From contig JAGXNP010000003.1 in the NCBI GenBank assembly GCA_019894885.1, positions 1-47,080 of the forward strand: DNA of 47,080 nucleotides. Reading direction: 5' to 3'. The notes under the pieces are model-generated. The model made no database searches. It saw nothing but the letters and a program-made list of their open reading frames with translations, and was not told where the DNA came from. The position numbers and the translations under genes are program-made. Shown one piece after another: positions 9,171-44,883 of this stretch (its first letter is position 1; every line of letters starts with the position of its first letter). The stretch is from Promethearchaeota archaeon (GTDB lineage: Archaea > Asgardarchaeota > Lokiarchaeia > Sigyniarchaeales > SOKP01).

Positions 9171-9271
9171 AAATTAGGTAGCTAATTAGATGAATAAAAA
9201 TAAATTTAACTGTTTAGAAAATTCAGTCTCTATTTAATATTTGAAAATATCAAAATTCGACAAAGAAATTG

Positions 9272-10141
9272 CTAATTTAGTATTCGATTGAGCTTATTTC
9301 CAAGAACTTCGGGTAGTTCTCCAAGGTAAGAGTTAAGATCACAAAAAAGTAAATAAAGGTAAGGTTCAAATAAGCTATCAACCGTTGGACCTACATCCGA
9401 TTTATAGATATAGACCCATATTTGCTCACCCGCATGAGTAGATTGACGATAAATCCAATTTAAAGGTGGAATTTCTGGGATATTGCCAATATTTCTTAAA
9501 ATTTCGTGGATATCGTCGAAGGAATACTTTTTCCCGAGGCTCATTAGTGGTGAAAGGTCGAACGATGTAATACAAATGTCCCTTAAGCCGTAATTTTTCA
9601 TCTCTCTTAAAAAGTCGTTCCCTAATCGTTTTAGTTGAGTCTTATGTTCACTAACTCGGGCTTTGGCATCAAAGTCAGTTAAAATATTATAGATTTTTTC
9701 TTCCTGTACGGGTAATATCTCGATAGCAGACACTAGAGGGATTTTATATGTAATGAGCGAATCATAAATTAGCTTAATTTTTGCGTAAATTGATTTATGA
9801 AATAGATATGACTCTGTTTGACATGTAATTAAAACATCTCCAAAGAATTTGGTTTTATCCTTCTCAAAGTCTGAAGATTCGTCAGAATTAAATTCAAGTA
9901 TATGAATATTCTTAGACATCGCTCGTGCGAATTTAAATAATGCTGAAACTAACCCCGCGTTTAATTCAAAAGAATCAGATACCCCATAATCGGATTGAGG
10001 TTTTATTTCTTCTTTCGAAAAATCAAAAAATCGCAAATTTAATTTGATACCGGTGGGAGCTTCTTTTACATCCAAATTATAATAAGGAAATCCATTACTT
10101 GTAATAACCGAAAAATTATAGATAGTCAACTTTCTTGACAA
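9272..10141 (-). CDS. Hypothetical protein with longin-like N-terminal domain and a second alpha/beta domain
   Basis: 'IYNFSVITSNGFPYY' beta-hairpin followed by the helix 'LNAGLVSALFKFARAM' resembles the longin pattern of the 37143 and 41512 proteins. Confidence 0.55.
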   Translation of the reverse strand: MSRKLTIYNFSVITSNGFPYYNLDVKEAPTGIKLNLRFFDFSKEEIKPQSDYGVSDSFELNAGLVSALFKFARAMSKNIHILEFNSDESSDFEKDKTKFFGDVLITCQTESYLFHKSIYAKIKLIYDSLITYKIPLVSAIEILPVQEEKIYNILTDFDAKARVSEHKTQLKRLGNDFLREMKNYGLRDICITSFDLSPLMSLGKKYSFDDIHEILRNIGNIPEIPPLNWIYRQSTHAGEQIWVYIYKSDVGPTVDSLFEPYLYLLFCDLNSYLGELPEVLGNKLNRILN

Positions 10142-10262
10142 TTATGTATAAAGAGATTATTATAATGATATATTCATTGTATAAAAATATGATTTTAAAT
10201 AGTTTTAGTATGATTTTGAAGTATATAGTAAAATCTAAATCAATGGAAATTAAAATAATAAA

Positions 10263-11666
10263 CTATTCGATTCTAACTCCCTGTTTCTTAAGGCTTGTTT
10301 GAACCTTAGAAAGATTAACCTGTCTACAAGAAACATTATCTTTGTAAGAAATAGCGGCAGCAACTCCTGCTCCTTGACCTGTAACTGTACAACAACACAT
10401 CTGTCGGGTTGCCGCGTGAGATATTTTATCACCTGCTACACAACGACCTACCACGAGTAGGTTTTCTACCTTCTGAGGAACGATAATGCCATAAGGGACT
10501 TGAAAATATCTTCCTGTAGTAGGCATGATCGCGATGCCATACCCGTCTATGAATTCAGGACATATCCCAATGGAATCCTCAAAATGGCCCTCATTTCTTA
10601 CATCGTGTTCGGTGATCTCATATTCACCCATAATTTTTCTCGATTCTCTAGTACCCACTGATGCCCCGATCGTTCTAAGTCTTGCTTTTTTAAAACCGGG
10701 AGTGTATTTTTTTAATGCTTCAATTGCCCACATAACTCGCTTTCTACCTTCGATTTCTGCTTTAGTGAGGTCCCATACATCTGTAGGGTCTATATCTGTC
10801 ATGTGAATCCCATTGAAAGATGTAATTTCTCCCGCATCTGTATAATTGGTCCAAAAACTTTCTATATCGACATCTTTTGGTATCTCACCAGCTTTTTTGG
10901 CCTTGTTGAACGGTTCAACCAAATATGTGCTAAAAGAACTTTCTTCCTTTCCGGAAGTATCACCCCAGTCTCCTATACTACCAGGATTTAGGTATACATA
11001 CATAAGAAATTTACCAATGTTAATTCCACTACAACCGTAATTAACCGTTACTTCCATTAATTCGTTCTTTGGGCTTTTACGAAAAGGTACACCTGAGTGA
11101 TATGCTATATCAGCATCTCCAGTGGCATCTATCACTCTTTTTGCTAAAATCGCTTGTCTCCCCGATTTACTTTCCGTTATAACTCCTATAATTGTCTGAT
11201 CTTCCATTATCACATCAACAGCTGAGCAATGGAGTATAGGTGTAATATTTGCATCTTGTACGAGCTTATCTGCTATACATTTAAACATTTCAGTATCCAG
11301 GATTTCATAGGTTGGTTCCCCATTAGCCATTAATCCCTCCTTTTCTAATGTTTTTATCATTTCTTTATTCTTTATGTTTCCGAATACATTGATGCTTCCA
11401 TTCATATCTTTTGCTAATTTTTCAAATTCTAAACCAATTCCACCAGCATCAACTGTTTTCGCATATCGATACCACGCAATGGTTCCGATCATCGCTTGCG
11501 TTATAACTCCTCCGAAACAACCATAGCGTTCGATAAGCATTGTGTTTACTCCTTCTCTAGCAGCAGCAATAGAAGCAGAAAGTCCAGCTGGTCCTCCTCC
11601 CACGATTAAAACATCGGTTTCTGCCATGATGGGCGTTTTTCTTGAAGGTTCTTCTATTATATTCAT
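10263..11666 (-). CDS. FAD-dependent oxidoreductase (FAD_oxidored family)
   Basis: DVLIVGGGPAG, ERYGCFGG, IDATGDAD, RESRKIMG, NLLVVGRC, GQGAGVAAA. Confidence 0.9.
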   Translation of the reverse strand: MNIIEEPSRKTPIMAETDVLIVGGGPAGLSASIAAAREGVNTMLIERYGCFGGVITQAMIGTIAWYRYAKTVDAGGIGLEFEKLAKDMNGSINVFGNIKNKEMIKTLEKEGLMANGEPTYEILDTEMFKCIADKLVQDANITPILHCSAVDVIMEDQTIIGVITESKSGRQAILAKRVIDATGDADIAYHSGVPFRKSPKNELMEVTVNYGCSGINIGKFLMYVYLNPGSIGDWGDTSGKEESSFSTYLVEPFNKAKKAGEIPKDVDIESFWTNYTDAGEITSFNGIHMTDIDPTDVWDLTKAEIEGRKRVMWAIEALKKYTPGFKKARLRTIGASVGTRESRKIMGEYEITEHDVRNEGHFEDSIGICPEFIDGYGIAIMPTTGRYFQVPYGIIVPQKVENLLVVGRCVAGDKISHAATRQMCCCTVTGQGAGVAAAISYKDNVSCRQVNLSKVQTSLKKQGVRIE

Positions 11667-22415: not shown

Positions 22416-22979
22416 ATGGAAATTAAAACTCCAAAAATTGATTTAACATTTAAAATGTGTATATTTGGAGATTCACATGTTGGTAAATCAACATTGATCA
22501 ACCGATATATTACTGCTAAATTTGATCATGACCTCAAGTCGACTTTAGGAGCGGCAATTTTGATGAAATTCATAGAAACGGAAACTACGAGAATAACACT
22601 TCAAATTTGGGATTTTGGTGGAGAAAATAGGTTTACTTCTCTTTTACCTAGCTATGCTCAAGGATCATCTGCAGCAATTTTTATGTGCGACATTTCTAAT
22701 CATGATAGCATTACGAATATAGATAAATGGTTCTTGAAATTTAACGAAGGACTGAACAATCGGGATCCAAAATTTCCTCTAATTATAGTTGGTGGAAAGT
22801 TGGACTTAGAAGAACAGCGATCTTTTAATAAAAAAGATATTGAAACTATCTTTACAGTACGAAAAGAATTTGATTACCTCGAATGCTCTTCAAAAACCGG
22901 AGAAAATGTAAATTTGCTTTTTAAAACTATTGTCGATAAAGTGTTGATTTATAGAAAGATTAAGCCATCTATAAGATAA
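22416..22979 (+). CDS. Rab-like small GTPase
   Basis: G1 GDSHVGKS, G2 STLG, G3 LQIWDFGGE, 'RFTSLLPSY', G4 GGKLD, G5 ECSSKTGENV; no C-terminal Cys. Confidence 0.9.
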   Translation: MEIKTPKIDLTFKMCIFGDSHVGKSTLINRYITAKFDHDLKSTLGAAILMKFIETETTRITLQIWDFGGENRFTSLLPSYAQGSSAAIFMCDISNHDSITNIDKWFLKFNEGLNNRDPKFPLIIVGGKLDLEEQRSFNKKDIETIFTVRKEFDYLECSSKTGENVNLLFKTIVDKVLIYRKIKPSIR

Positions 22980-37142: not shown

Positions 37143-37895
37143 ATGAAGTTACACTCACTTTTTATTTTGACTAAGGCGGGAGCTTGTCTATACAGCAGAA
37201 ATATTACAAAAGATTTTGAGAATATAGAACCAAATCTGATAACACCTTTTTTCTCGGCTATTTTTTCCTTTTCTGAAAACGTTATTTCTAAAGAAACACC
37301 CGAAATCCTCGAAATGGGTGGTTTTAGAATAGTTTTCAAAGTAGAAGGTGAGCATATTTACGCTATTCTAGCAGATACAAGCGCTAATATTTTGTATATT
37401 AACTCTAGATTGGCTAGCATCATTCAAATATTTAAAGAATTCCTCCAGAATAACATAGTTGAAGATTACGAAAAAATCCAAAATAGCGACTTCGATGCTA
37501 AAATTGATTCGATTATAAAAGGGGAGGATGAATTATCTTCAAGTCAGCCATTATATAAAAAGATAATCGATCTTATTAAAAGATTAACCCTTGAAAACGA
37601 AATTCTTGGAGCAGCGTTATTTTCTATAAATGGAAATGTAATTTTTTCATCCTTACCGCATGATATATTATTGTCCTCTCTTAAAGAATTAGAAATTCGA
37701 CATATAGTAGCCAATGAATACTCCCTAACATTTTATAGTTTAGAGAACAATCAGAAAGTATTTTCGAGAATAATTGATATTCCCTGGAAGTTAGATCCGA
37801 TTTTGATAGTATTACTATATGAGTCTTCAGTCCCTCTTGGTATGGCAGAAGTGAATTTAGAAAAGATAACAAAAACTATTCAAAACATTATATAG
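37143..37895 (+). CDS. Longin domain + roadblock/profilin-like domain protein
   Basis: Longin pattern 'LHSLFILTKAGACLYSR...LITPFFSAIFSFSE...LEMGGFRIVF...IYAILAD'; second domain 'ILGAALFSINGNVIFSSL'. Confidence 0.75.
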   Translation: MKLHSLFILTKAGACLYSRNITKDFENIEPNLITPFFSAIFSFSENVISKETPEILEMGGFRIVFKVEGEHIYAILADTSANILYINSRLASIIQIFKEFLQNNIVEDYEKIQNSDFDAKIDSIIKGEDELSSSQPLYKKIIDLIKRLTLENEILGAALFSINGNVIFSSLPHDILLSSLKELEIRHIVANEYSLTFYSLENNQKVFSRIIDIPWKLDPILIVLLYESSVPLGMAEVNLEKITKTIQNII

Positions 37896-37984
37896 TTCTT
37901 AATCACATTTTATCCTTTAACCAGAATTCTAAGATTCGGAAAAATAAAATAACCTTTTTTTATGGTTAATGATTTTGGAACTTT

Positions 37985-39250
37985 ATGTATGATTTTATTG
38001 TTATTGGTGCGGGAATATCTGGAACTTCATTTGCATATAAGGCTTCAAAGTTCGCAAAAACTCTTCTTATCGAATCGCAAGATTACCAACGAGAAATCCC
38101 TGTGAGAACTAACATTTTTGCTGAACACAATAAACCTTTTGTTGATGATGTGTTCTGGAACGATGATTCTATCTTTCCAAGACCATTCCTTCAATTGAAT
38201 TATAAAAGTGAAAAACATAATGGACTTTTACATTCAAAGGAGTTTGGAGCACCATTAGGAAAAATTTCTCATACCGAAATATTGATTCAAAAAATCATCG
38301 ATAAATTTAGAGATCAAGGGGGAACTACACTTTTCAATCAAACTGTTTCTAAAGTAGTCAGACACTCAGATCATATTGAAGTTATTAATAATAAAGGAGA
38401 ATCTTTTACTTCTAAACTTTTAGTTTTAGCAACAGGATCTCGGGGTTTTCCTTTGCAAAAATCTCTTGGTTTTCAAACTCCTGATTCGTTTATGGGAATT
38501 TATACTAATATTTACGCTGATGAATCCCTTCTAGAAGAAAATTTCAGTTTCCAATACATGTTTCATTTAAATCCTACTATTAGCCAAAACGGCCCTTTTT
38601 TCTTTAATGTTGGAAAAGGAAGAATTGCAGCCGGATACTTAGGGAATAAAGAAAATCCCGCAGAGCTTAAGGATAAGTTATTTAGAATCCTCAAGAACTA
38701 CCAAAAAATTCAACCTTTTCTAAAAGGCATAACTTGGGACGAATCTATTCCAACTATAAGTGGAGGTATTTCAAAGCATCCAATAAATTCCTTTTCAAAA
38801 GATCGCGTTATTGTGTTAGGGGAAGCAGCAGGATTAGTTACAGCATTTTTTTACGAAGGAATCTTATGTGGATTGGCTAGCGCTGATATTGCAACGAAGT
38901 TATTAAAACCTTTACTCGCAAATGATTCGAATTTTACTAGGGTTGAATTAAAAAAATACGACGATGAGGTCGCTCGAGTGTTATTCACTTATTTTAGAAA
39001 TGGCAATGCCTGCGAATATCTCTTTTATAATGAAAGTTCTTCAACGAAAACATTGTGGGATTCTTATACAAACTTATTAAATACTAATAAAACCGTGAGA
39101 GAATATGTCTACGAAGCACATATTAACCAAGATTTATCAACACATAATACTGATAACGACAGATGGGTTGGAGAAAGGCTTTTCGCTACAATACCTGTTT
39201 TTTCTAAAATGACGCTATGGCCAAAGTTCCTAAAAGCCATGAGTTTTTAG
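37985..39250 (+). CDS. Geranylgeranyl reductase-like FAD oxidoreductase
   Basis: YDFIVIGAGISG, LVLATG, VLGEAAGLVTAFFYEGI. Confidence 0.8.
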   Translation: MYDFIVIGAGISGTSFAYKASKFAKTLLIESQDYQREIPVRTNIFAEHNKPFVDDVFWNDDSIFPRPFLQLNYKSEKHNGLLHSKEFGAPLGKISHTEILIQKIIDKFRDQGGTTLFNQTVSKVVRHSDHIEVINNKGESFTSKLLVLATGSRGFPLQKSLGFQTPDSFMGIYTNIYADESLLEENFSFQYMFHLNPTISQNGPFFFNVGKGRIAAGYLGNKENPAELKDKLFRILKNYQKIQPFLKGITWDESIPTISGGISKHPINSFSKDRVIVLGEAAGLVTAFFYEGILCGLASADIATKLLKPLLANDSNFTRVELKKYDDEVARVLFTYFRNGNACEYLFYNESSSTKTLWDSYTNLLNTNKTVREYVYEAHINQDLSTHNTDNDRWVGERLFATIPVFSKMTLWPKFLKAMSF

Positions 39251-39460
39251 TTTTTATGCTTCTTTATCCTTTTGGTTACTCCTAAATTTTTTCTAGCCTA
39301 TTTCATTGTACTTGTATGTAAAAAAAGTATTTTGTGTCAAAAGAAAAACAATTTTTAAAAAAAAACCCTTTTATATATCATCATTTTTACCACAATATTA
39401 TATTCTAATTTAATTTTGATAACAAAAAACAAAATGTTATAAAAAAATTAGGGATCGTCT

Positions 39461-39952
39461 TTGGCAACAGATTATAGCGTAATATGTAAACTCGGAGGAT
39501 ATGTTAACAGCAATCCAGAACTCATTTCTTCCTATCCGTCACTTGATCAATCATTAAAAACAGAGATTCTACCAAAGTGTTTCCCAATTGGCGCTAAAAC
39601 TGGTGACTTTATCGTCGAAAAATATCGCAAATATGTTGTTTTATCTTATATTTTTAGGGTCAATCAAACAGCAGATAGAGACGATATCTTCTCATTATCA
39701 GTTCTACTTAATAAAAAAGATAAGACAGAAATTTACAAGCCTGTGCTTCAAAGTTTGATAGACAAATTAGAACAGAATGATCTCTTAAACGAGCATGTAT
39801 TAACTAAGAACCAACGAGCTATCTTTGAAGGGATGAACCAAGAAAAGAATGTTACTATTAGTAATGTCTTAATTGATCTTTCTAAAGTTTTTAAAGAAAT
39901 CAAATCTAAAATACTGAAACCAGAAATAAAAGTGAAAGGGAGTTTTTTGTAA
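39461..39952 (+). CDS. uDENN/longin-like protein (candidate GTPase regulator)
   Basis: 'PELISSYP...EILPKCFPIG' resembles the uDENN signature; beta4-loop-beta5 'VLSYIFRVNQTADRDDIFSLSVLL' followed by a helix. Confidence 0.55.
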   Translation: MATDYSVICKLGGYVNSNPELISSYPSLDQSLKTEILPKCFPIGAKTGDFIVEKYRKYVVLSYIFRVNQTADRDDIFSLSVLLNKKDKTEIYKPVLQSLIDKLEQNDLLNEHVLTKNQRAIFEGMNQEKNVTISNVLIDLSKVFKEIKSKILKPEIKVKGSFL

Positions 39953-39953
39953 A

Positions 39954-40595
39954 ATGGCAGAAGATTTTTTTTTATCAAGTCTTGGAATTGTGGCTAATCT
40001 TTCGAGTGCAATATTTATACCTATTGCGACATTAATTTTAGGCAGAAAGCTTCTCAAAGACAAGAAAGAAACGGGAAAATACAATATTATACGATTAATT
40101 ATATTTCTTTCTTTCCTGAACTTCTCGATATTAGCAATCATCGAGTTTCTTTTAAAAAATACCCCGTTAATTCCACCTTTTATAGAAGAATTATATAGCG
40201 CTGAATTCGGTTTCTATAATACATCTGTAGCTATTAGGGTGACCTTAGGTCTTACTTTGATTTTTTATATTAATAGATGGGAAATATTACACTTCTCAGC
40301 TATTTTCTTCTTCATTGGAATGTTATTTCTTTATTTATTTACTGGGTTTTCCGCTTGGCTTGAGAATTACACGATTATTGCAGGAGTTGCAAGCATTCTC
40401 TTTTTATACTTTACGGCATTTCGCATGAAGGACAATGGCGCTCTTAGTATAGCAATCTTTTTCACCCTAACATTTAGTATTCAATTTATTTCTGAAGCAT
40501 TGGTCTCAGAAATAATTATTATAAGTTATGTAGCTTTTGTTGTTATCTTCTCACTGGGATTGTTTAGACCATATAAACAGGAGGTAAATACTTAA
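39954..40595 (+). CDS. 7-TM membrane protein A
   Basis: Seven hydrophobic segments by eye; 1 nt from the upstream stop; paralog of the next gene. Confidence 0.75.
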   Translation: MAEDFFLSSLGIVANLSSAIFIPIATLILGRKLLKDKKETGKYNIIRLIIFLSFLNFSILAIIEFLLKNTPLIPPFIEELYSAEFGFYNTSVAIRVTLGLTLIFYINRWEILHFSAIFFFIGMLFLYLFTGFSAWLENYTIIAGVASILFLYFTAFRMKDNGALSIAIFFTLTFSIQFISEALVSEIIIISYVAFVVIFSLGLFRPYKQEVNT

Positions 40596-40596
40596 T

Positions 40597-41247
40597 ATGG
40601 CGGAGATAGGTTTCTTGTTTATGGAACTCGTTTATTTTACTATGGGGCTGATGACTGTTTTTACTACATTAAAACAATGGAAGATAAATAAAAACAGAAT
40701 GTTAATTGCTGTATCAATATATGTTGCAGCGGTATTGGTAACATCAATCATTGATATTTCAATCTATCTGTTTGACTTTGATATTGATATCCTGATAGCT
40801 GGAGGATTGACAATTGGAATGATTCTCGGGTTCATATTATTTACGATTCAATTAGAATTCATGTTCTATTTAAAGGATTTACCTAAACTATACACTCTTC
40901 CCTTTTTTGCCAGTTTTTATCTTGCATTCGGAAAAGTGTTAGTTGACTCAACAATACCTTTTATAATTTACGCGATGATTGTAAGTTACGGATCTGCCTA
41001 CTTTCTCATCAAAGACGGAAGGAAAAGTCGTAACGGATTAGCAATCGGAATGGGGCTATTCTTTCTCATATGGGGCCTAGGACAGACATTTCAACTTGAG
41101 ACTATAATCATTAGCTTTAGAATAGTTGCAATGGTGGCACTCTTATTAGGTACAAGAGGTTTTTATGAGAAATATGTATTCGTCAATGTAGAAGAAGAAC
41201 AGAAAATAATGGGAACCTGGATTGCAAAATTGGTAGTAAAGGAATAA
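40597..41247 (+). CDS. 7-TM membrane protein B
   Basis: Seven hydrophobic segments; GGAGGT RBS inside the upstream gene; shares 'NG(A/L)xxxxxFF' and 'FY(I/L)xxxxxL' with protein A. Confidence 0.75.
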   Translation: MAEIGFLFMELVYFTMGLMTVFTTLKQWKINKNRMLIAVSIYVAAVLVTSIIDISIYLFDFDIDILIAGGLTIGMILGFILFTIQLEFMFYLKDLPKLYTLPFFASFYLAFGKVLVDSTIPFIIYAMIVSYGSAYFLIKDGRKSRNGLAIGMGLFFLIWGLGQTFQLETIIISFRIVAMVALLLGTRGFYEKYVFVNVEEEQKIMGTWIAKLVVKE

Positions 41248-41511
41248 TAACGATTTTTTTAATTTTTTTCTTTTGCTATTAACCCAATCAGGGATATTAA
41301 TGAAATTTTAATCTAATTTTAGGTTTGTATTTTTACAATAGACTCTTTTTGTTCTACTGAAAAAAAGGAAAATAGGTTCAACAAAAAAATAATTCTGTGA
41401 CAATGTAACAAACAATAACATAAATAATTTCGTTTATAATTATAGTGTGTTATTATAGTTTCAAGATATAAATTATAGTACTATTTCTAAAACAATATAA
41501 GATAGAGTATA

Positions 41512-42408
41512 ATGGGAATTAAAGATATTTTGAAACGAGTATTTACTAAAGAAAAAAAAATTGTTATTACCGGACTTGACAGCGCTGGCAAAACCACCAT
41601 GATTAGTTTTCTACAGAATGGTACCTTTATGGAACATACACCCACAATGGGTAAAGAATTATCTCAAATTGAAGTACAAGGAATTCGTATAAATGTTATG
41701 GATATGGGTGGGCAAAAAGATTTCAGAGATTTATGGATTGGAGAAGCTTCGACTGCTGAGTGTGTAATATTTATGATAGACGCAGGGGCTCGAGAAAGAT
41801 TCAACGAAGCTAAAGACGAGCTATGGAAGTTATCTTCCATTTTTAAGAAGAAACCCCTGATAGTACTAGCAAATAAATACGATCTTCAACCTATTGCCTC
41901 TATTAGTGAAATTATTGCAGCTTTGAATTTGAAAGATTTACCCTCTTTTGAAGTATTACCGATTTCATGTAAAACTGGATATGGAATTGTAAAAGCATTC
42001 ATGAAGATGTACTATAAATTAACTGGTAAGCAACTGACCCAAAAGACAAGCCTTAGAGCTATTACCATTTTTGATCAGGGAGGAATTCCTTTAACATCAT
42101 CCTCAAATAAAGATATATTACAGGGGGGATTATTTACTGCCATTCATAATTTTGTGAGGGAATCTTTTAATTCTGAACTTGATCAACTTAAAATGGGAGA
42201 ACATCTTATCCTATTCAAACGATCGAAACATCTTATGGGCTCAATAATAGTTAATGATAATGATAATGTTGATATCAAAGAAGCAGAGTCAGGATTAAAT
42301 GATTTATTACTCCATTTAGAGCATATGTGTCCTGAGCTCGAGAAAGAACAATTAAATTATGGTAAAATCGAGTATTTAGTGGAACAATACGCTTCAAATC
42401 TGTTCTAA
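41512..42408 (+). CDS. Arf-family small GTPase fused to a C-terminal longin domain
   Basis: MG-amphipathic N-terminal helix, GLDSAGKTT, TPTMG, DMGGQKDFRDLW, VIFMID, NKYD, SCKTG; C-terminal 'AITIFDQGGIPL...GGLFTAIHNFVRE...LKMGEHLILF'. Confidence 0.88.
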   Translation: MGIKDILKRVFTKEKKIVITGLDSAGKTTMISFLQNGTFMEHTPTMGKELSQIEVQGIRINVMDMGGQKDFRDLWIGEASTAECVIFMIDAGARERFNEAKDELWKLSSIFKKKPLIVLANKYDLQPIASISEIIAALNLKDLPSFEVLPISCKTGYGIVKAFMKMYYKLTGKQLTQKTSLRAITIFDQGGIPLTSSSNKDILQGGLFTAIHNFVRESFNSELDQLKMGEHLILFKRSKHLMGSIIVNDNDNVDIKEAESGLNDLLLHLEHMCPELEKEQLNYGKIEYLVEQYASNLF

Positions 42409-42525
42409 ATCCGTTTTTAGCTTTTTTTTTCCAATCTTTTTATTTAATAAAAACTACTTAATCGTTAAATTAGGGTATATTAAAGCTTTTTTCACATTCT
42501 GTTGATGATCATATATGGAAAAGCG

Positions 42526-44883
42526 TTATTTATTATTGAACTTCTCTAATAAACCTTTTTGAAGCTTTTCTATTGACTTTTTAATGTTATCAATAAAAAT
42601 TTTAATCTCTTTTCCAAGATTTGGGTTAATATCAATTGCTTTCTCGAGGTTTTGAAATGCCGCATGGTAATCGTTCTTATCTAAATAGGCGTAACCCATA
42701 AAAAGCCAAGCGAACGCATAATTCGGGTCTATTTCTGTTGCTTTTTTATAGGATTCAATTGCTATATTATATTGTTTCTCGTGTTTATAAGCGTTTGCCA
42801 AATTATAATGGGCTAAAGTATAAGTGGATTCAAATCCAACTGCTATTTTATAAGAATCTATTGCTTTATCAAATTTATTTAATTTTTCGTAACTAAAACC
42901 CATATTGTTCCAAGCTTTTGCGTGATTTGAATTGAGATCAATCGCTTTTTTGAAGTACTCAATCGCGTTTTTATATTCTTTTTTCTCGTTATTTGCGATC
43001 CCGATATAATAATATGCATCGATATGTGTACTATCTAATTCTATCGCTTTATTACAGTCTTGAATCGCTGTATCATAATCTTTCCTTTCAATTTCTAATT
43101 TCGCTTTATTTATCAACTTCAATTTGTATTCGTATTTTATAGCAATTCGATTTTTAAATTCTGGGCTTTTAATTGATTCGTTAATTGTAATGGCACTTTC
43201 AAAGTGTTCAAAAGCATCTTTAAAGCTTTCGCTATCAGCCAATTGAATACCTTGTTCGACTAATAGTTTAATTTTGGAATAAAATACCTCGTCAATAGAT
43301 TTCTTGATCTGCTCCATCTCTTGGAATCTACGCGTAGGGTCATCTATTGTTTTTGCATAATCCATTTTTTTATTTAGTTTATCTAACTCTTTTTCAAATT
43401 TCTGGAGTTCTTCAGATAAATCCCCACGATCTACTAAGTCTTTTAATTCTGCTTGATACACTAAACCTTTTATTTTATTAATTTCTTCTTCCATTTCTTG
43501 AGTTAGGTACATTTTATTAGTCATTTCTAATGCTCTGTTAAAACTTTTAATAGCTTCGTTGTATTTTTTACTCGCCAATTTATCATTTCCCTCCCTAACG
43601 ACTTCATCTATCTGAGCCAAATACACTTTGTTGACTGTATTTTTTAAATCTTCTAAGTCTTCGTTAGTTTCGTCAGAGATTGGTAATCTTTTTGCTACAC
43701 TAATTGCCGCATATAGATCATTAATAGCTTTTTCGTATTCTCGTTGCCCAATTTTTTGAATAGATTTTTCTTTAATAAATTTGATTCGAATTTTGCAAGT
43801 ATTATTAATAGAATTAGTTATTTCCCTTATCTTCTCGCTTTTCTCGTTTGAATCAGGCATTTTATTTGCTAATTCTAAGGATTTGTCAAATAAATCTAAT
43901 GCCTCATTCACTACAACTATATCTTCTTCAAAGTTATCTTTTATAATTAATTCTTTTCCTTTATTAAAGATGGGTTTAATTTTCTCCAAATAGATTGGAT
44001 TTAGCACCATTGATGCGATTGAATTAATTCTTTGTATTTCTGATTTCTTGTAGTCTGTGTCGTACATATTTTTAGAGATACTTACAGCTTCTTCGAATTT
44101 TTGAGCAGCGTCCTCGAAAGTGTTTTCTTCAAATAGTTTTTTACCATCTTCCATGATTACATTTATTTTCTCTGAGTATAAGTGATTAATTAAATTTATT
44201 GAATTCTTTTTATCTGTGTTTTTTAAGTCAGAATCAAAATACTTATCCACTAGTTCCAAAGCATTCTGGTATTCTTCAAGAGCTTTATCAAATTTATTAT
44301 TATCTTTAAATTGGTTAGCAGTTTCAATTAGAGGGGAAACTTTTAATGAATAAGTATGATTAATAGTATCTTCAATTTTTTTAATCATTTGATCTTCTAG
44401 ATCTTCCATGTAAAAATCTTTTGCAGCGTTTAGTGTGTCGTATAGCATACTTATGGCTTTATCTAACTCCTGCTTATTCTTCACTCGGACGGCTTGAAAG
44501 AGAGATTCTTCGATCCTTGTTTTATTTATTAGATAACTAATCTCTTTAACTTCATAATCTCTCAAATCTTTATCTACTATCTTATCAGCAATTCTCGCTG
44601 CTTCGTCGAATGTGTTGAAAGCGGAATCAAAAATTTCATTTTCAATGAATTTTCTTGCCTCGTCAATGATATCAATGATTTTTACAGAATATATTTGGTC
44701 AATTTGGGATTTAATGTTTGCTGTTTCATCTAAGCGCTCCTCTGGTTCTTTAACTGACTCCTCAACGAATTTCAGAGCTTCTAAATACTTTTCAACAGCT
44801 TTATTGTATTCTTTAAGGTTTTTAAATTCATTCCCTTCTTGCATGATGGAATTAAGTTTCTTTAAGTCAGATTTCTTTACCAT
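42526..44883 (-). CDS. Large helical-repeat protein: about 10 three-helix repeats of ~58 aa plus about 5 C-terminal TPRs
   Basis: Repeats of the type 'I..(G/A).......Y..A...Y..A......' with a third helix; canonical TPRs 'AYYYIG', 'AWNNMG', 'AHYNLA', 'AWLFMG'. Confidence 0.85.
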   Translation of the reverse strand: MVKKSDLKKLNSIMQEGNEFKNLKEYNKAVEKYLEALKFVEESVKEPEERLDETANIKSQIDQIYSVKIIDIIDEARKFIENEIFDSAFNTFDEAARIADKIVDKDLRDYEVKEISYLINKTRIEESLFQAVRVKNKQELDKAISMLYDTLNAAKDFYMEDLEDQMIKKIEDTINHTYSLKVSPLIETANQFKDNNKFDKALEEYQNALELVDKYFDSDLKNTDKKNSINLINHLYSEKINVIMEDGKKLFEENTFEDAAQKFEEAVSISKNMYDTDYKKSEIQRINSIASMVLNPIYLEKIKPIFNKGKELIIKDNFEEDIVVVNEALDLFDKSLELANKMPDSNEKSEKIREITNSINNTCKIRIKFIKEKSIQKIGQREYEKAINDLYAAISVAKRLPISDETNEDLEDLKNTVNKVYLAQIDEVVREGNDKLASKKYNEAIKSFNRALEMTNKMYLTQEMEEEINKIKGLVYQAELKDLVDRGDLSEELQKFEKELDKLNKKMDYAKTIDDPTRRFQEMEQIKKSIDEVFYSKIKLLVEQGIQLADSESFKDAFEHFESAITINESIKSPEFKNRIAIKYEYKLKLINKAKLEIERKDYDTAIQDCNKAIELDSTHIDAYYYIGIANNEKKEYKNAIEYFKKAIDLNSNHAKAWNNMGFSYEKLNKFDKAIDSYKIAVGFESTYTLAHYNLANAYKHEKQYNIAIESYKKATEIDPNYAFAWLFMGYAYLDKNDYHAAFQNLEKAIDINPNLGKEIKIFIDNIKKSIEKLQKGLLEKFNNK

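Follow-up and report, generated by a model that had tools for sequence, protein, structure and literature searches.

A 47,080-nucleotide stretch of DNA from a Promethearchaeota archaeon of the order Sigyniarchaeales (assembly GCA_019894885.1, contig JAGXNP010000003.1; hereafter, the window) contains four consecutive genes, here called C, D, E, and F, that very likely constitute a single conserved, co-inherited module. C encodes a soluble protein, D and E encode predicted seven-transmembrane (7-TM) proteins, and F encodes an Arf-family GTPase with a predicted C-terminal longin domain. C is most likely a regulator of the F GTPase and is probably a GTPase-activating protein (GAP). We regard as evenly balanced the fuller proposal that the four proteins form a membrane-coupled Arf-type GTPase switch in which C is the GAP on a membrane platform provided by D and E. 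Loki-type Asgard archaea carry the module as four genes, and Heimdall-type genomes have a counterpart made up of three.

The module was recognized from the persistent linkage of its genes. We studied 14 same-genus loci with larger flanks, 13 of which could be assessed. C, D, E, and F were together in all 13, in the order C-D-E-F in 12 and F-C-D-E in one (L034); another locus, L025, stops inside E at the end of its contig. The F-C-D-E arrangement, in which the genes abut, was also found in another genus of the window's family (L058). In the other families of the order, F is located directly upstream of C in six of six loci, with gaps of no more than 46 nucleotides or with overlaps, and D and E follow C wherever the contig is long enough. 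Throughout the order, C is accompanied by D if the contig extends far enough, and two genomes of other families carry extra F-C pairs without D or E. In two genomes of the genus, the contig with the main locus bears another, diverged C-D-E-F set at a distance of about 13 kb (L022 on G008:C21 and L024 on G002:C8), whose C and F proteins are 46-48% and 67-69% identical, respectively, to those of the window. The D gene of one genome, G009 (L027:3763-4388), matches as two overlapping pieces, suggesting a frameshift or an assembly error.

The genes also share their distribution across genomes. C was detected in 20 of 41 related genomes, counting the source genome (G000), and in 42 of the 301 genomes of a phylum-wide sample. 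Of 24 same-genus genomes, 12 have C, and the same 12 have E. Strong matches to the F longin were found in 11 of these 12; the twelfth, G015, has a 2998-bp contig that ends inside E. Two C-negative genomes of the genus retain a strong F-longin match, as a fragment in G021 and as a remnant in G024, which is without C and E and whose F-longin sequence has two in-frame stop codons (G024:C5:81338-81661). In 16 genomes of other families, C and the F longin are present in the same seven. Related genomes are not independent observations. Because the linkage survives rearrangement, duplication, and joint loss, these data point to functional coupling of C, D, E, and F, and of only these four. The neighborhood that the initial annotation had singled out as a candidate GTPase circuit is thus conserved at its core, with four-gene linkage in all assessable loci of the genus and F-C linkage in the loci from other families.

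The initial annotation had placed seven open reading frames (ORFs), A to G, in this region, and all seven lie at the coordinates and on the strands it gave (Table 1). The gaps that it had described also agree: 1 nucleotide between C and D, 1 nucleotide between D and E, and 264 nucleotides between E and F. The T-tracts it reported in the E-F spacer are oligo-T runs at approximately 41254-41274, including two T7 runs, located right behind the E stop codon and conserved in the genus. An alignment of 10 spacers from the genus revealed a conserved block, ATTCTGTnGCAAnATAACA, at approximately 41392-41413, about 100 nucleotides before the start of F, and an AT-rich, TATA-like sequence lies just before the F start. 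The spacer is 153-273 nucleotides long across the 12 C-D-E-F loci. The conserved block may be an operator or promoter element.

Table 1. Features of the C-D-E-F module and of its neighbors, with positions in the window
Feature	Position	Strand	Size	Description
C	39461-39952	+	163 amino acids, TTG start	ORF; soluble candidate GTPase regulator
D	39954-40595	+	213 amino acids	ORF; predicted 7-TM membrane protein
E	40597-41247	+	216 amino acids	ORF; predicted 7-TM membrane protein, profile-level paralog of D
E-F spacer	41248-41511	+	264 nucleotides	Oligo-T runs and conserved block
F	41512-42408	+	298 amino acids	ORF; Arf-family GTPase and longin
F GTPase part	41512-42057	+		Pfam Arf match; ArfR-type G domain
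F C-terminal longin	42058-42408	+	residues ~183-298	Fuz/Mon1-type class
A	37143-37895	+	250 amino acids	ORF; longin and roadblock by profile comparison; neighbor, outside the core
B	37985-39250	+	421 amino acids	ORF; GGR-superfamily flavoprotein; neighbor, outside the core
G	42526-44883	-	785 amino acids	Helical-repeat/TPR protein, convergent with F; neighbor, outside the core

F matched the Pfam Arf model (PF00025) over residues 5-166 with 117.3 bits against a cut-off of 22.3 (E 6.8e-34) and also scored on Pfam SRPRB (E 8.6e-6). The Arf model has 64 matches in the source genome, and F is the highest-scoring one. All G motifs are present (P-loop GLDSAGKT, PTMGK, DMGGQ with Gln68, NKYD, and SCKTG), and their core residues and Gln68 are invariant across 20 homologs. 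The N-terminus keeps a MG[IV]..ILKR pattern among homologs (MG..ILKR in the window) that appears amphipathic. The best solved relatives of the G domain are 8OUN, 8OUM, 8OUL, and 8OUK (E 7.5e-28 to 1.7e-20), which the ArfR preprint names GerdArfR1 and HodArfR1.

The C-terminal ~120 residues of F had no direct Pfam match, and in the source genome the Fuz_longin_1 and Robl_LC7 models matched neither C nor the F longin at E values up to 1. A hidden Markov model (HMM) of the F longin part, by contrast with this direct scan, finds the Fuz_longin_1-type proteins of the source genome. The best of these, C279:10225-10644 (E 1.1e-7), is the sole protein of that genome above the Fuz_longin_1 cut-off (31.8 bits versus 26.1). 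In a profile-profile comparison with hhalign, the F longin matched 21 orthologs of this protein at 95.3% (E 2.1e-8, 91 columns). Because of the Arf match and the profile match of its C-terminal part to Fuz_longin_1-type longins, F is, by domain content, an ArfR-longin fusion whose longin belongs to the Fuz/Mon1-type class, as the initial annotation had read it in more general terms. Proteins of ~300 amino acids from other Asgard families (L115, L117, L119, and L120) carry a general longin N-terminal to an Arf-like G domain, the reverse of the F domain order.

The C family comprises 121 clusters at 50% identity. All named members are annotated as "hypothetical," and the source labels are Asgard only (Loki, Promethearchaeota, Thor, or Heimdall), with close homologs labeled Lokiarchaeota, Promethearchaeota, or other Asgard names. 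Neither C nor its profiles matched Pfam, NCBIfam, or PDB sequences. Pro42 and Arg73 are invariant in the family-wide alignment (39 of 39 sequences), and arginine occupies the Arg73 position in 96 of the 108 representatives that could be aligned out of 121. Among aligned representatives, 40 have asparagine and 38 have glycine at position 18, and proline occupies position 19 in 65 of 97. C of the window carries N18-P19; judging by the pattern of the alignment and by a rough propensity estimate, this pair would lie immediately ahead of strand 2. The C-termini also fall into recognizable forms, KGSF[LF] in close members and an acidic stretch with a tryptophan (DDLW) in distant members. Four C-family members of ~250 amino acids (P0147, P0157, P0162, and P0175) show the GP motif clearly and are extended at the C-terminus by ~80 amino acids that match no family.

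We compared C with 32 stretches from Asgard loci found with the Folliculin model, all matching an HMM built from the initial eight; the set retains some weak rows. The model itself (PF11704) scored above its cut-off at nine of 11 places in five genomes of the Heimdall-labeled type and, across the phylum, at 25 places in 21 of 201 genomes. The C alignment matched the folliculin-type set at 79.6% over 112 collinear columns (hhalign; E 1.5e-5); against the same set, the distant C subset by itself reached 65.3% and the 121 C representatives reached 58.1%. As controls, the reversed C alignment yielded 0.2% and 20 column shuffles yielded no more than 0.8%, and general longin, F longin, roadblock, and A profiles scored 0.1-0.8% against the same set. 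In this profile-level alignment, the C arginine aligns with the arginine of an "ARG" motif carried by 29 of the 32 stretches, and G-[L/P] of C before strand 2 aligns with a GP present in 28 of 32. Section 2.4 of PMC12290439 describes the same two marks, a GP ahead of strand 2 and an arginine finger, as specific to GAP-type longins and common to some Asgard longins. We therefore lean, with modest conviction, toward C being a minimal folliculin-type longin.

Other assignments of C were set aside. C scored 0.2-0.4% against the Robl_LC7 family of the source genome, which gives no support to a roadblock/MglB identity. Longin and roadblock profiles connected at 74.7% in the same test, so hhalign is sensitive enough for such links. 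Nor is C a full DENN protein, as it is a single 163-amino-acid domain with no uDENN or DENN model match. A feature-based search suggested NPR2 and C9orf72-like for C (scores of 0.90 and 0.76), which are leads only, and the NPR2 lead was not borne out by its Pfam model. That model matched in none of 301 phylum genomes at E values up to 1e-4, and 21 relatives gave just three sub-threshold NPR2 matches, located elsewhere in their genomes. No fused C form of at least 330 amino acids was found, which is weak evidence. The initial description of C as "longin/uDENN-like" draws, in its longin part, on a remote profile similarity to folliculin-type longins with the arginine and the [G/N]-P aligned; no family match and no full DENN protein accompany it.

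D has seven hydrophobic segments; E has six at threshold and a probable seventh at residues 97-112. The charge pattern predicts an N-out/C-in topology for both, which places the conserved basic loops and tails on the cytoplasmic side. The conserved loops of D include the motif R-x-K-D-N-G, and E has a D-G-[RK]-K-x-R-N-G loop motif and a conserved cytoplasmic tail, GFYEKYVF...GTWI.KL. By BLASTP, D and E show no similarity (E 4.1), but their profiles align at 93.3% (hhalign; E 2.8e-7, 105 columns), a score of a kind that membrane profiles can inflate, and share a loop motif (KDNG.L/RNGL). The two proteins, previously described as paralogous 7-TM proteins, are thus related at the profile level and carry the 7-TM pattern, but the kinship is not visible to BLASTP. 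Neither has a Pfam or NCBIfam family, and no consistent family emerged from 19 D and 18 E homologs. D and E, these homologs included, gave no match to a PQ-loop, transporter, or other known 7-TM family.

A Cys/His module of ~60 amino acids (CPxC...C[DE]H.[FY]...GY) is fused to the C-termini of E-type proteins in two genomes. The same module stands at the N-terminus of one C-family protein and at the C-terminus of two folliculin-type longins. The five carriers are L036:1779-2855 (-), L039:2267-3232 (-), P0104, L127:1180-1878 (-), and L129:1168-1878 (-), and pairwise scores in the five-sequence comparison were 29-42 bits. C120:641-1279 of the source genome carries the Cys/His motif too. We count the apparent sharing of one module by E-type, C-family, and folliculin-type proteins in favor of the proposed connection among them.

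Relatives of the module extend beyond the order. A scan of the phylum detected 50 distant C-like places (E 1e-6 to 1e-22) in four other families, with C-like genes in 9 of 28 genomes of f9, 9 of 11 of f31, 1 of 21 of f26, and 1 of 2 of f32. These proteins are homologous to C (99.7%, E 4e-25), and two of their clusters are labeled Heimdallarchaeota by the sources. We examined gene order in 28 of the 50 places. The C-like gene is followed by a transmembrane gene in 25 of these loci. In 16 of the 28, it is followed by an Arf-like GTPase of 149-206 amino acids and then by a protein with six or seven transmembrane segments, often with overlapping stop and start codons. The remaining loci comprise six with C-like followed by 7-TM, three with C-like followed by two transmembrane genes, and three of unclear order.

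Two GTPases of these triads were scanned and matched Pfam Arf (E 1e-40 and 7e-38), and all 15 that are complete keep the P-loop, DxxGQ, [NH]KxD, and an MSF..LF N-terminus. A quick tree of 70 G domains recovered F (support 98) and the distant C-linked GTPases (support 99) as two monophyletic clades, both inside one Arf-like group (support 90). The distant-triad 7-TM proteins make up a single family, with subsets matching at 100% and 98.7%, and this family adjoins a general longin in 11 of 22 loci. One of these is in the source genome, on C279 (L091), where a 7-TM protein of 249 amino acids at 9247-9996 (-) lies beside the 139-amino-acid Fuz_longin_1-type longin at 10225-10644 (+). The general longin beside 7-TM genes ends in ...AFW, comparable with the C-family tails, and may share a docking tail with them.

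In our reading, these features are best explained by the following mechanism. F, whose catalytic motifs are intact, would cycle on the membrane through an N-terminal segment resembling the Arf membrane-binding helix. C would dock on F, probably by pairing with the F longin, as in FLCN-FNIP, NPRL2-NPRL3, and C9orf72-SMCR8. It would then insert Arg73, beside the [G/N]-P loop, into the nucleotide pocket and so stimulate GTP hydrolysis. D and E would together provide a platform in the membrane, recruiting or gating C and F by way of their conserved loops and tails on the cytoplasmic side. The gene identities, the linkage, and the remote homologies are observed; what we infer is binding, a role of C as a GAP and not as a guanine nucleotide exchange factor (GEF), and any sensing by D and E. 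We hold the specific action of C on F as a GAP to be an evenly poised proposition.

Several results weigh against this mechanism or against the assignment of C on which it draws. The folliculin link of C is suggested by a single remote profile match of about 80%, obtained without secondary-structure scoring, and the aligned C arginine would correspond to the human arginine finger only through that profile. No Folliculin, NPR2, or C9orf72-like model matched in 23 members of the C family at E values up to 1 or in 45 distant members at E values up to 0.01. Four long C forms showed no longin, uDENN, NPR2, or Folliculin match, and a search of PDB sequences with C profiles found no relevant solved chain. 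C scored no more than 4% (hhalign) against the F longin, the two halves of A, the general longin family, and roadblock proteins. No protein fusing C to a GTPase was found, which is weak evidence. The distant linked GTPases are without a longin, so longin-longin pairing cannot be a rule for all loci. Their 7-TM partners, as a family, have no significant profile similarity to D or E, and the tree gave no resolved sister relationship between the two C-linked GTPase clades. Finally, F probably has its own promoter in the window's genus and is probably not co-transcribed with C-D-E, because oligo-T runs and a conserved, promoter-like spacer precede it.

D, E, and the distant 7-TM proteins could be a regulated output of the module or its passive anchor, such as a transporter, channel, or membrane-shaping protein, instead of sensors. 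We consider this somewhat unlikely. It would fit the finding that no ligand-binding or receptor family matches D or E, the placement of their conserved motifs on the predicted cytoplasmic and not the outer side, and the nine of 28 distant loci in which a C-like gene and a 7-TM gene occur without a neighboring GTPase. However, no transporter family matches these proteins either, and the data do not separate sensor from effector.

An unlikely alternative is that the module is the same but that C acts as an exchange factor, a nucleotide-state-specific effector, or an adaptor, not as a GAP. A GEF role is the commoner one among longin platforms such as Mon1-Ccz1, TRAPP, and DENN, and the linkage evidence fits such a role equally well. 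The F longin belongs to the Fuz/Mon1-type class, whose eukaryotic members are in GEF complexes. In addition, C of the window reads N-P, not G-P, before strand 2, and proline is present there in just two-thirds of the aligned representatives (65 of 97). C as a GAP is favored by the alignment of its invariant arginine with the conserved arginine of folliculin-type longins, and C lacks profile similarity to the Fuz/Mon1-type longin family (4%).

The genes flanking the module bear on a further alternative, namely that the neighborhood is inherited gene order without functional coupling. The profiles agree with the identities that the initial annotation had given to A, B, and G. The N-terminal half of A matched the Pfam-supported longin family at 85.7% and its C-terminal half matched the Robl_LC7 proteins of the source genome at 79.3% (both hhalign). 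B scored 75.5 bits on TIGR02032, under the cut-off of 158.8, and G has TPR repeats at about residues 590-760. A lies beside the module in nine of 11 primary same-genus loci and, among the loci assessable for it, is seen in the genus only; the two paralogous loci and the six other-family loci are without it. B is upstream of C in the genus and in one of five loci of other genera, and is absent from the paralogous loci and from other families. G is syntenic within the genus only and is missing from the paralogous copy and from other families. By this distribution, A, B, and G are neighbors outside the conserved core, and their earlier inclusion as parts of a circuit is not borne out, as they are conserved beside the module within the family only and are absent from the second copies and from other families. 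The flanking genes A, B, G, and H thus keep synteny at close range only, as expected where close relatives share order by descent. For C-D-E-F itself, we consider mere inheritance very improbable: its linkage outlasts changes of order, duplication, divergence to 25-30% identity, and joint loss, and C-like and Arf-like genes are adjacent in distant families.

It is scarcely credible that the module is an accessory defense or mobile-element system, as its patchy distribution (12 of 24 same-genus genomes) and the up to nine C-like copies in one genome (G262) might suggest, given that PADLOC returned only a weak match of the F P-loop to VakA (E 0.0014, residues 15-43), that no relative was found in viral contigs, and that the context in the window is housekeeping-like. 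This context includes thioredoxin-like, amidohydrolase, and GGR-like genes. The window has a G+C content of ~30% and gave no families in an Rfam scan; the source genome is 3.2 Mb in 279 contigs and 89% complete. The window also encodes a Ras/Rab-like small GTPase of 187 amino acids at 22416-22979 (+) (Pfam Ras, E 1.6e-36) that has no obvious partner genes.

In eukaryotic longin GAPs, a catalytic longin, recognizable by a GP ahead of strand 2 and an arginine finger in the loop that follows strand 4, acts on an Arf or Rag GTPase and is paired with a second longin. The proposed module resembles FLCN-FNIP, NPRL2-NPRL3, and C9orf72-SMCR8-WDR41 in that C aligns with Asgard Folliculin-positive longins at the GP and arginine marks, and in that a second longin is available, supplied by F. 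It differs from these complexes in that C is a single 163-amino-acid domain without a DENN part and with no Folliculin, NPR2, or C9orf72 match, in that the partner longin is fused to the GTPase itself, and in being known from sequence alone. Polytopic membrane proteins are linked to such machinery in eukaryotes as well: the membrane transporter PQLC2 recruits C9orf72-SMCR8-WDR41, and SLC38A9 recruits Ragulator-Rag. The likeness here is conceptual: both combine polytopic membrane proteins with a longin regulator and a small GTPase, in our case as candidates seen as genes only. D and E match no PQ-loop, transporter, or other known 7-TM family.

Two further systems pair a small GTPase with a protein of this superfamily. 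SR-beta is an Arf-like GTPase bound at the membrane by the longin-fold SRX domain of SR-alpha. F likewise combines an Arf-like GTPase with a longin and scores on SRPRB, but its longin is fused in cis, and nothing links the locus to protein targeting. MglA-MglB of Myxococcus, a GTPase with a roadblock-dimer GAP, is similar in that a prokaryotic small GTPase is encoded with a regulator of the longin/roadblock superfamily. It differs in its roadblock regulator, to which C scores 0.2-0.4%, in its GTPase, F being Arf-type, and in having no 7-TM partners.

Among Asgard proteins, F shares the Arf-type P-loop, switch motifs, and N-terminal segment of GerdArfR1 and HodArfR1. Unlike them, it has a C-terminal longin and conserved gene partners; the searched text of the ArfR preprint mentions no neighbors or operons. 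A putative Asgard operon of a LAMTOR1-like protein, a Rab-like GTPase, and a DENN protein appears in the Liu preprint (10.1101/2020.10.19.343400). It is likewise a conserved Asgard neighborhood of a small GTPase with longin/roadblock-superfamily proteins, but the GTPase of our module is ArfR and not Rab-like, the regulator is of another family, and 7-TM genes are not mentioned in the text consulted.

The components of the module have precedents in print. GTPase-longin fusions in Asgard archaea have been reported in general terms (PMC10933270; 10.1101/2020.10.19.343400), as have NPRL2-like and FLCN-like Asgard longins (PMC10933270; PMC12290439; 10.1101/2020.10.19.343400). Most such GTPase and longin genes are described as not being in conserved neighborhoods (PMC10933270; 10.1101/2020.10.19.343400), and in a cultured Loki archaeon, small-GTPase genes as a rule do not share operons with genes for longin or roadblock proteins (PMC10933270). 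A 2026 preprint counts "7TM proteins" among earlier-reported Asgard signature families, without detail. Like the initial annotation, which knew of no description of this gene arrangement, we found none of a C-like, ArfR, and 7-TM arrangement in the literature accessible to us, which did not cover supplementary neighborhood tables (e.g., those of asCOG) that may bear on it. What appears to be new here is that a putative regulatory module of GTPase and longin has 7-TM partners of its own.

Arf-like GTPases are numerous in Asgard archaea, but according to the discussion in PMC11914678, which draws on a structure-based search covering 52 proteomes, their native regulators and partners have yet to be identified. 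The module points to small, expressible candidate proteins for pull-down, GAP/GEF, and membrane-recruitment assays, and it occurs in Loki-labeled as well as Heimdall-labeled genomes. Only tentatively do we suggest that the 7-TM proteins sense a membrane condition and, by way of a folliculin-type longin, control the nucleotide state of an ArfR dedicated to them, in a system predating the Loki/Heimdall split. On that equally speculative footing, the module might be a prokaryotic forerunner of the axes that lead from a membrane protein through a longin GAP to an Arf or Rag GTPase, such as PQLC2 with C9orf72-SMCR8 and SLC38A9/FLCN with Rag, and in broader terms an Arf-type G protein under the direct control of a seven-helix receptor. 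Should C prove to be a GAP-type longin, the catalytic principle shared by FLCN, GATOR1, and C9orf72-SMCR8, together with its coupling to polytopic membrane proteins, would predate eukaryotes.

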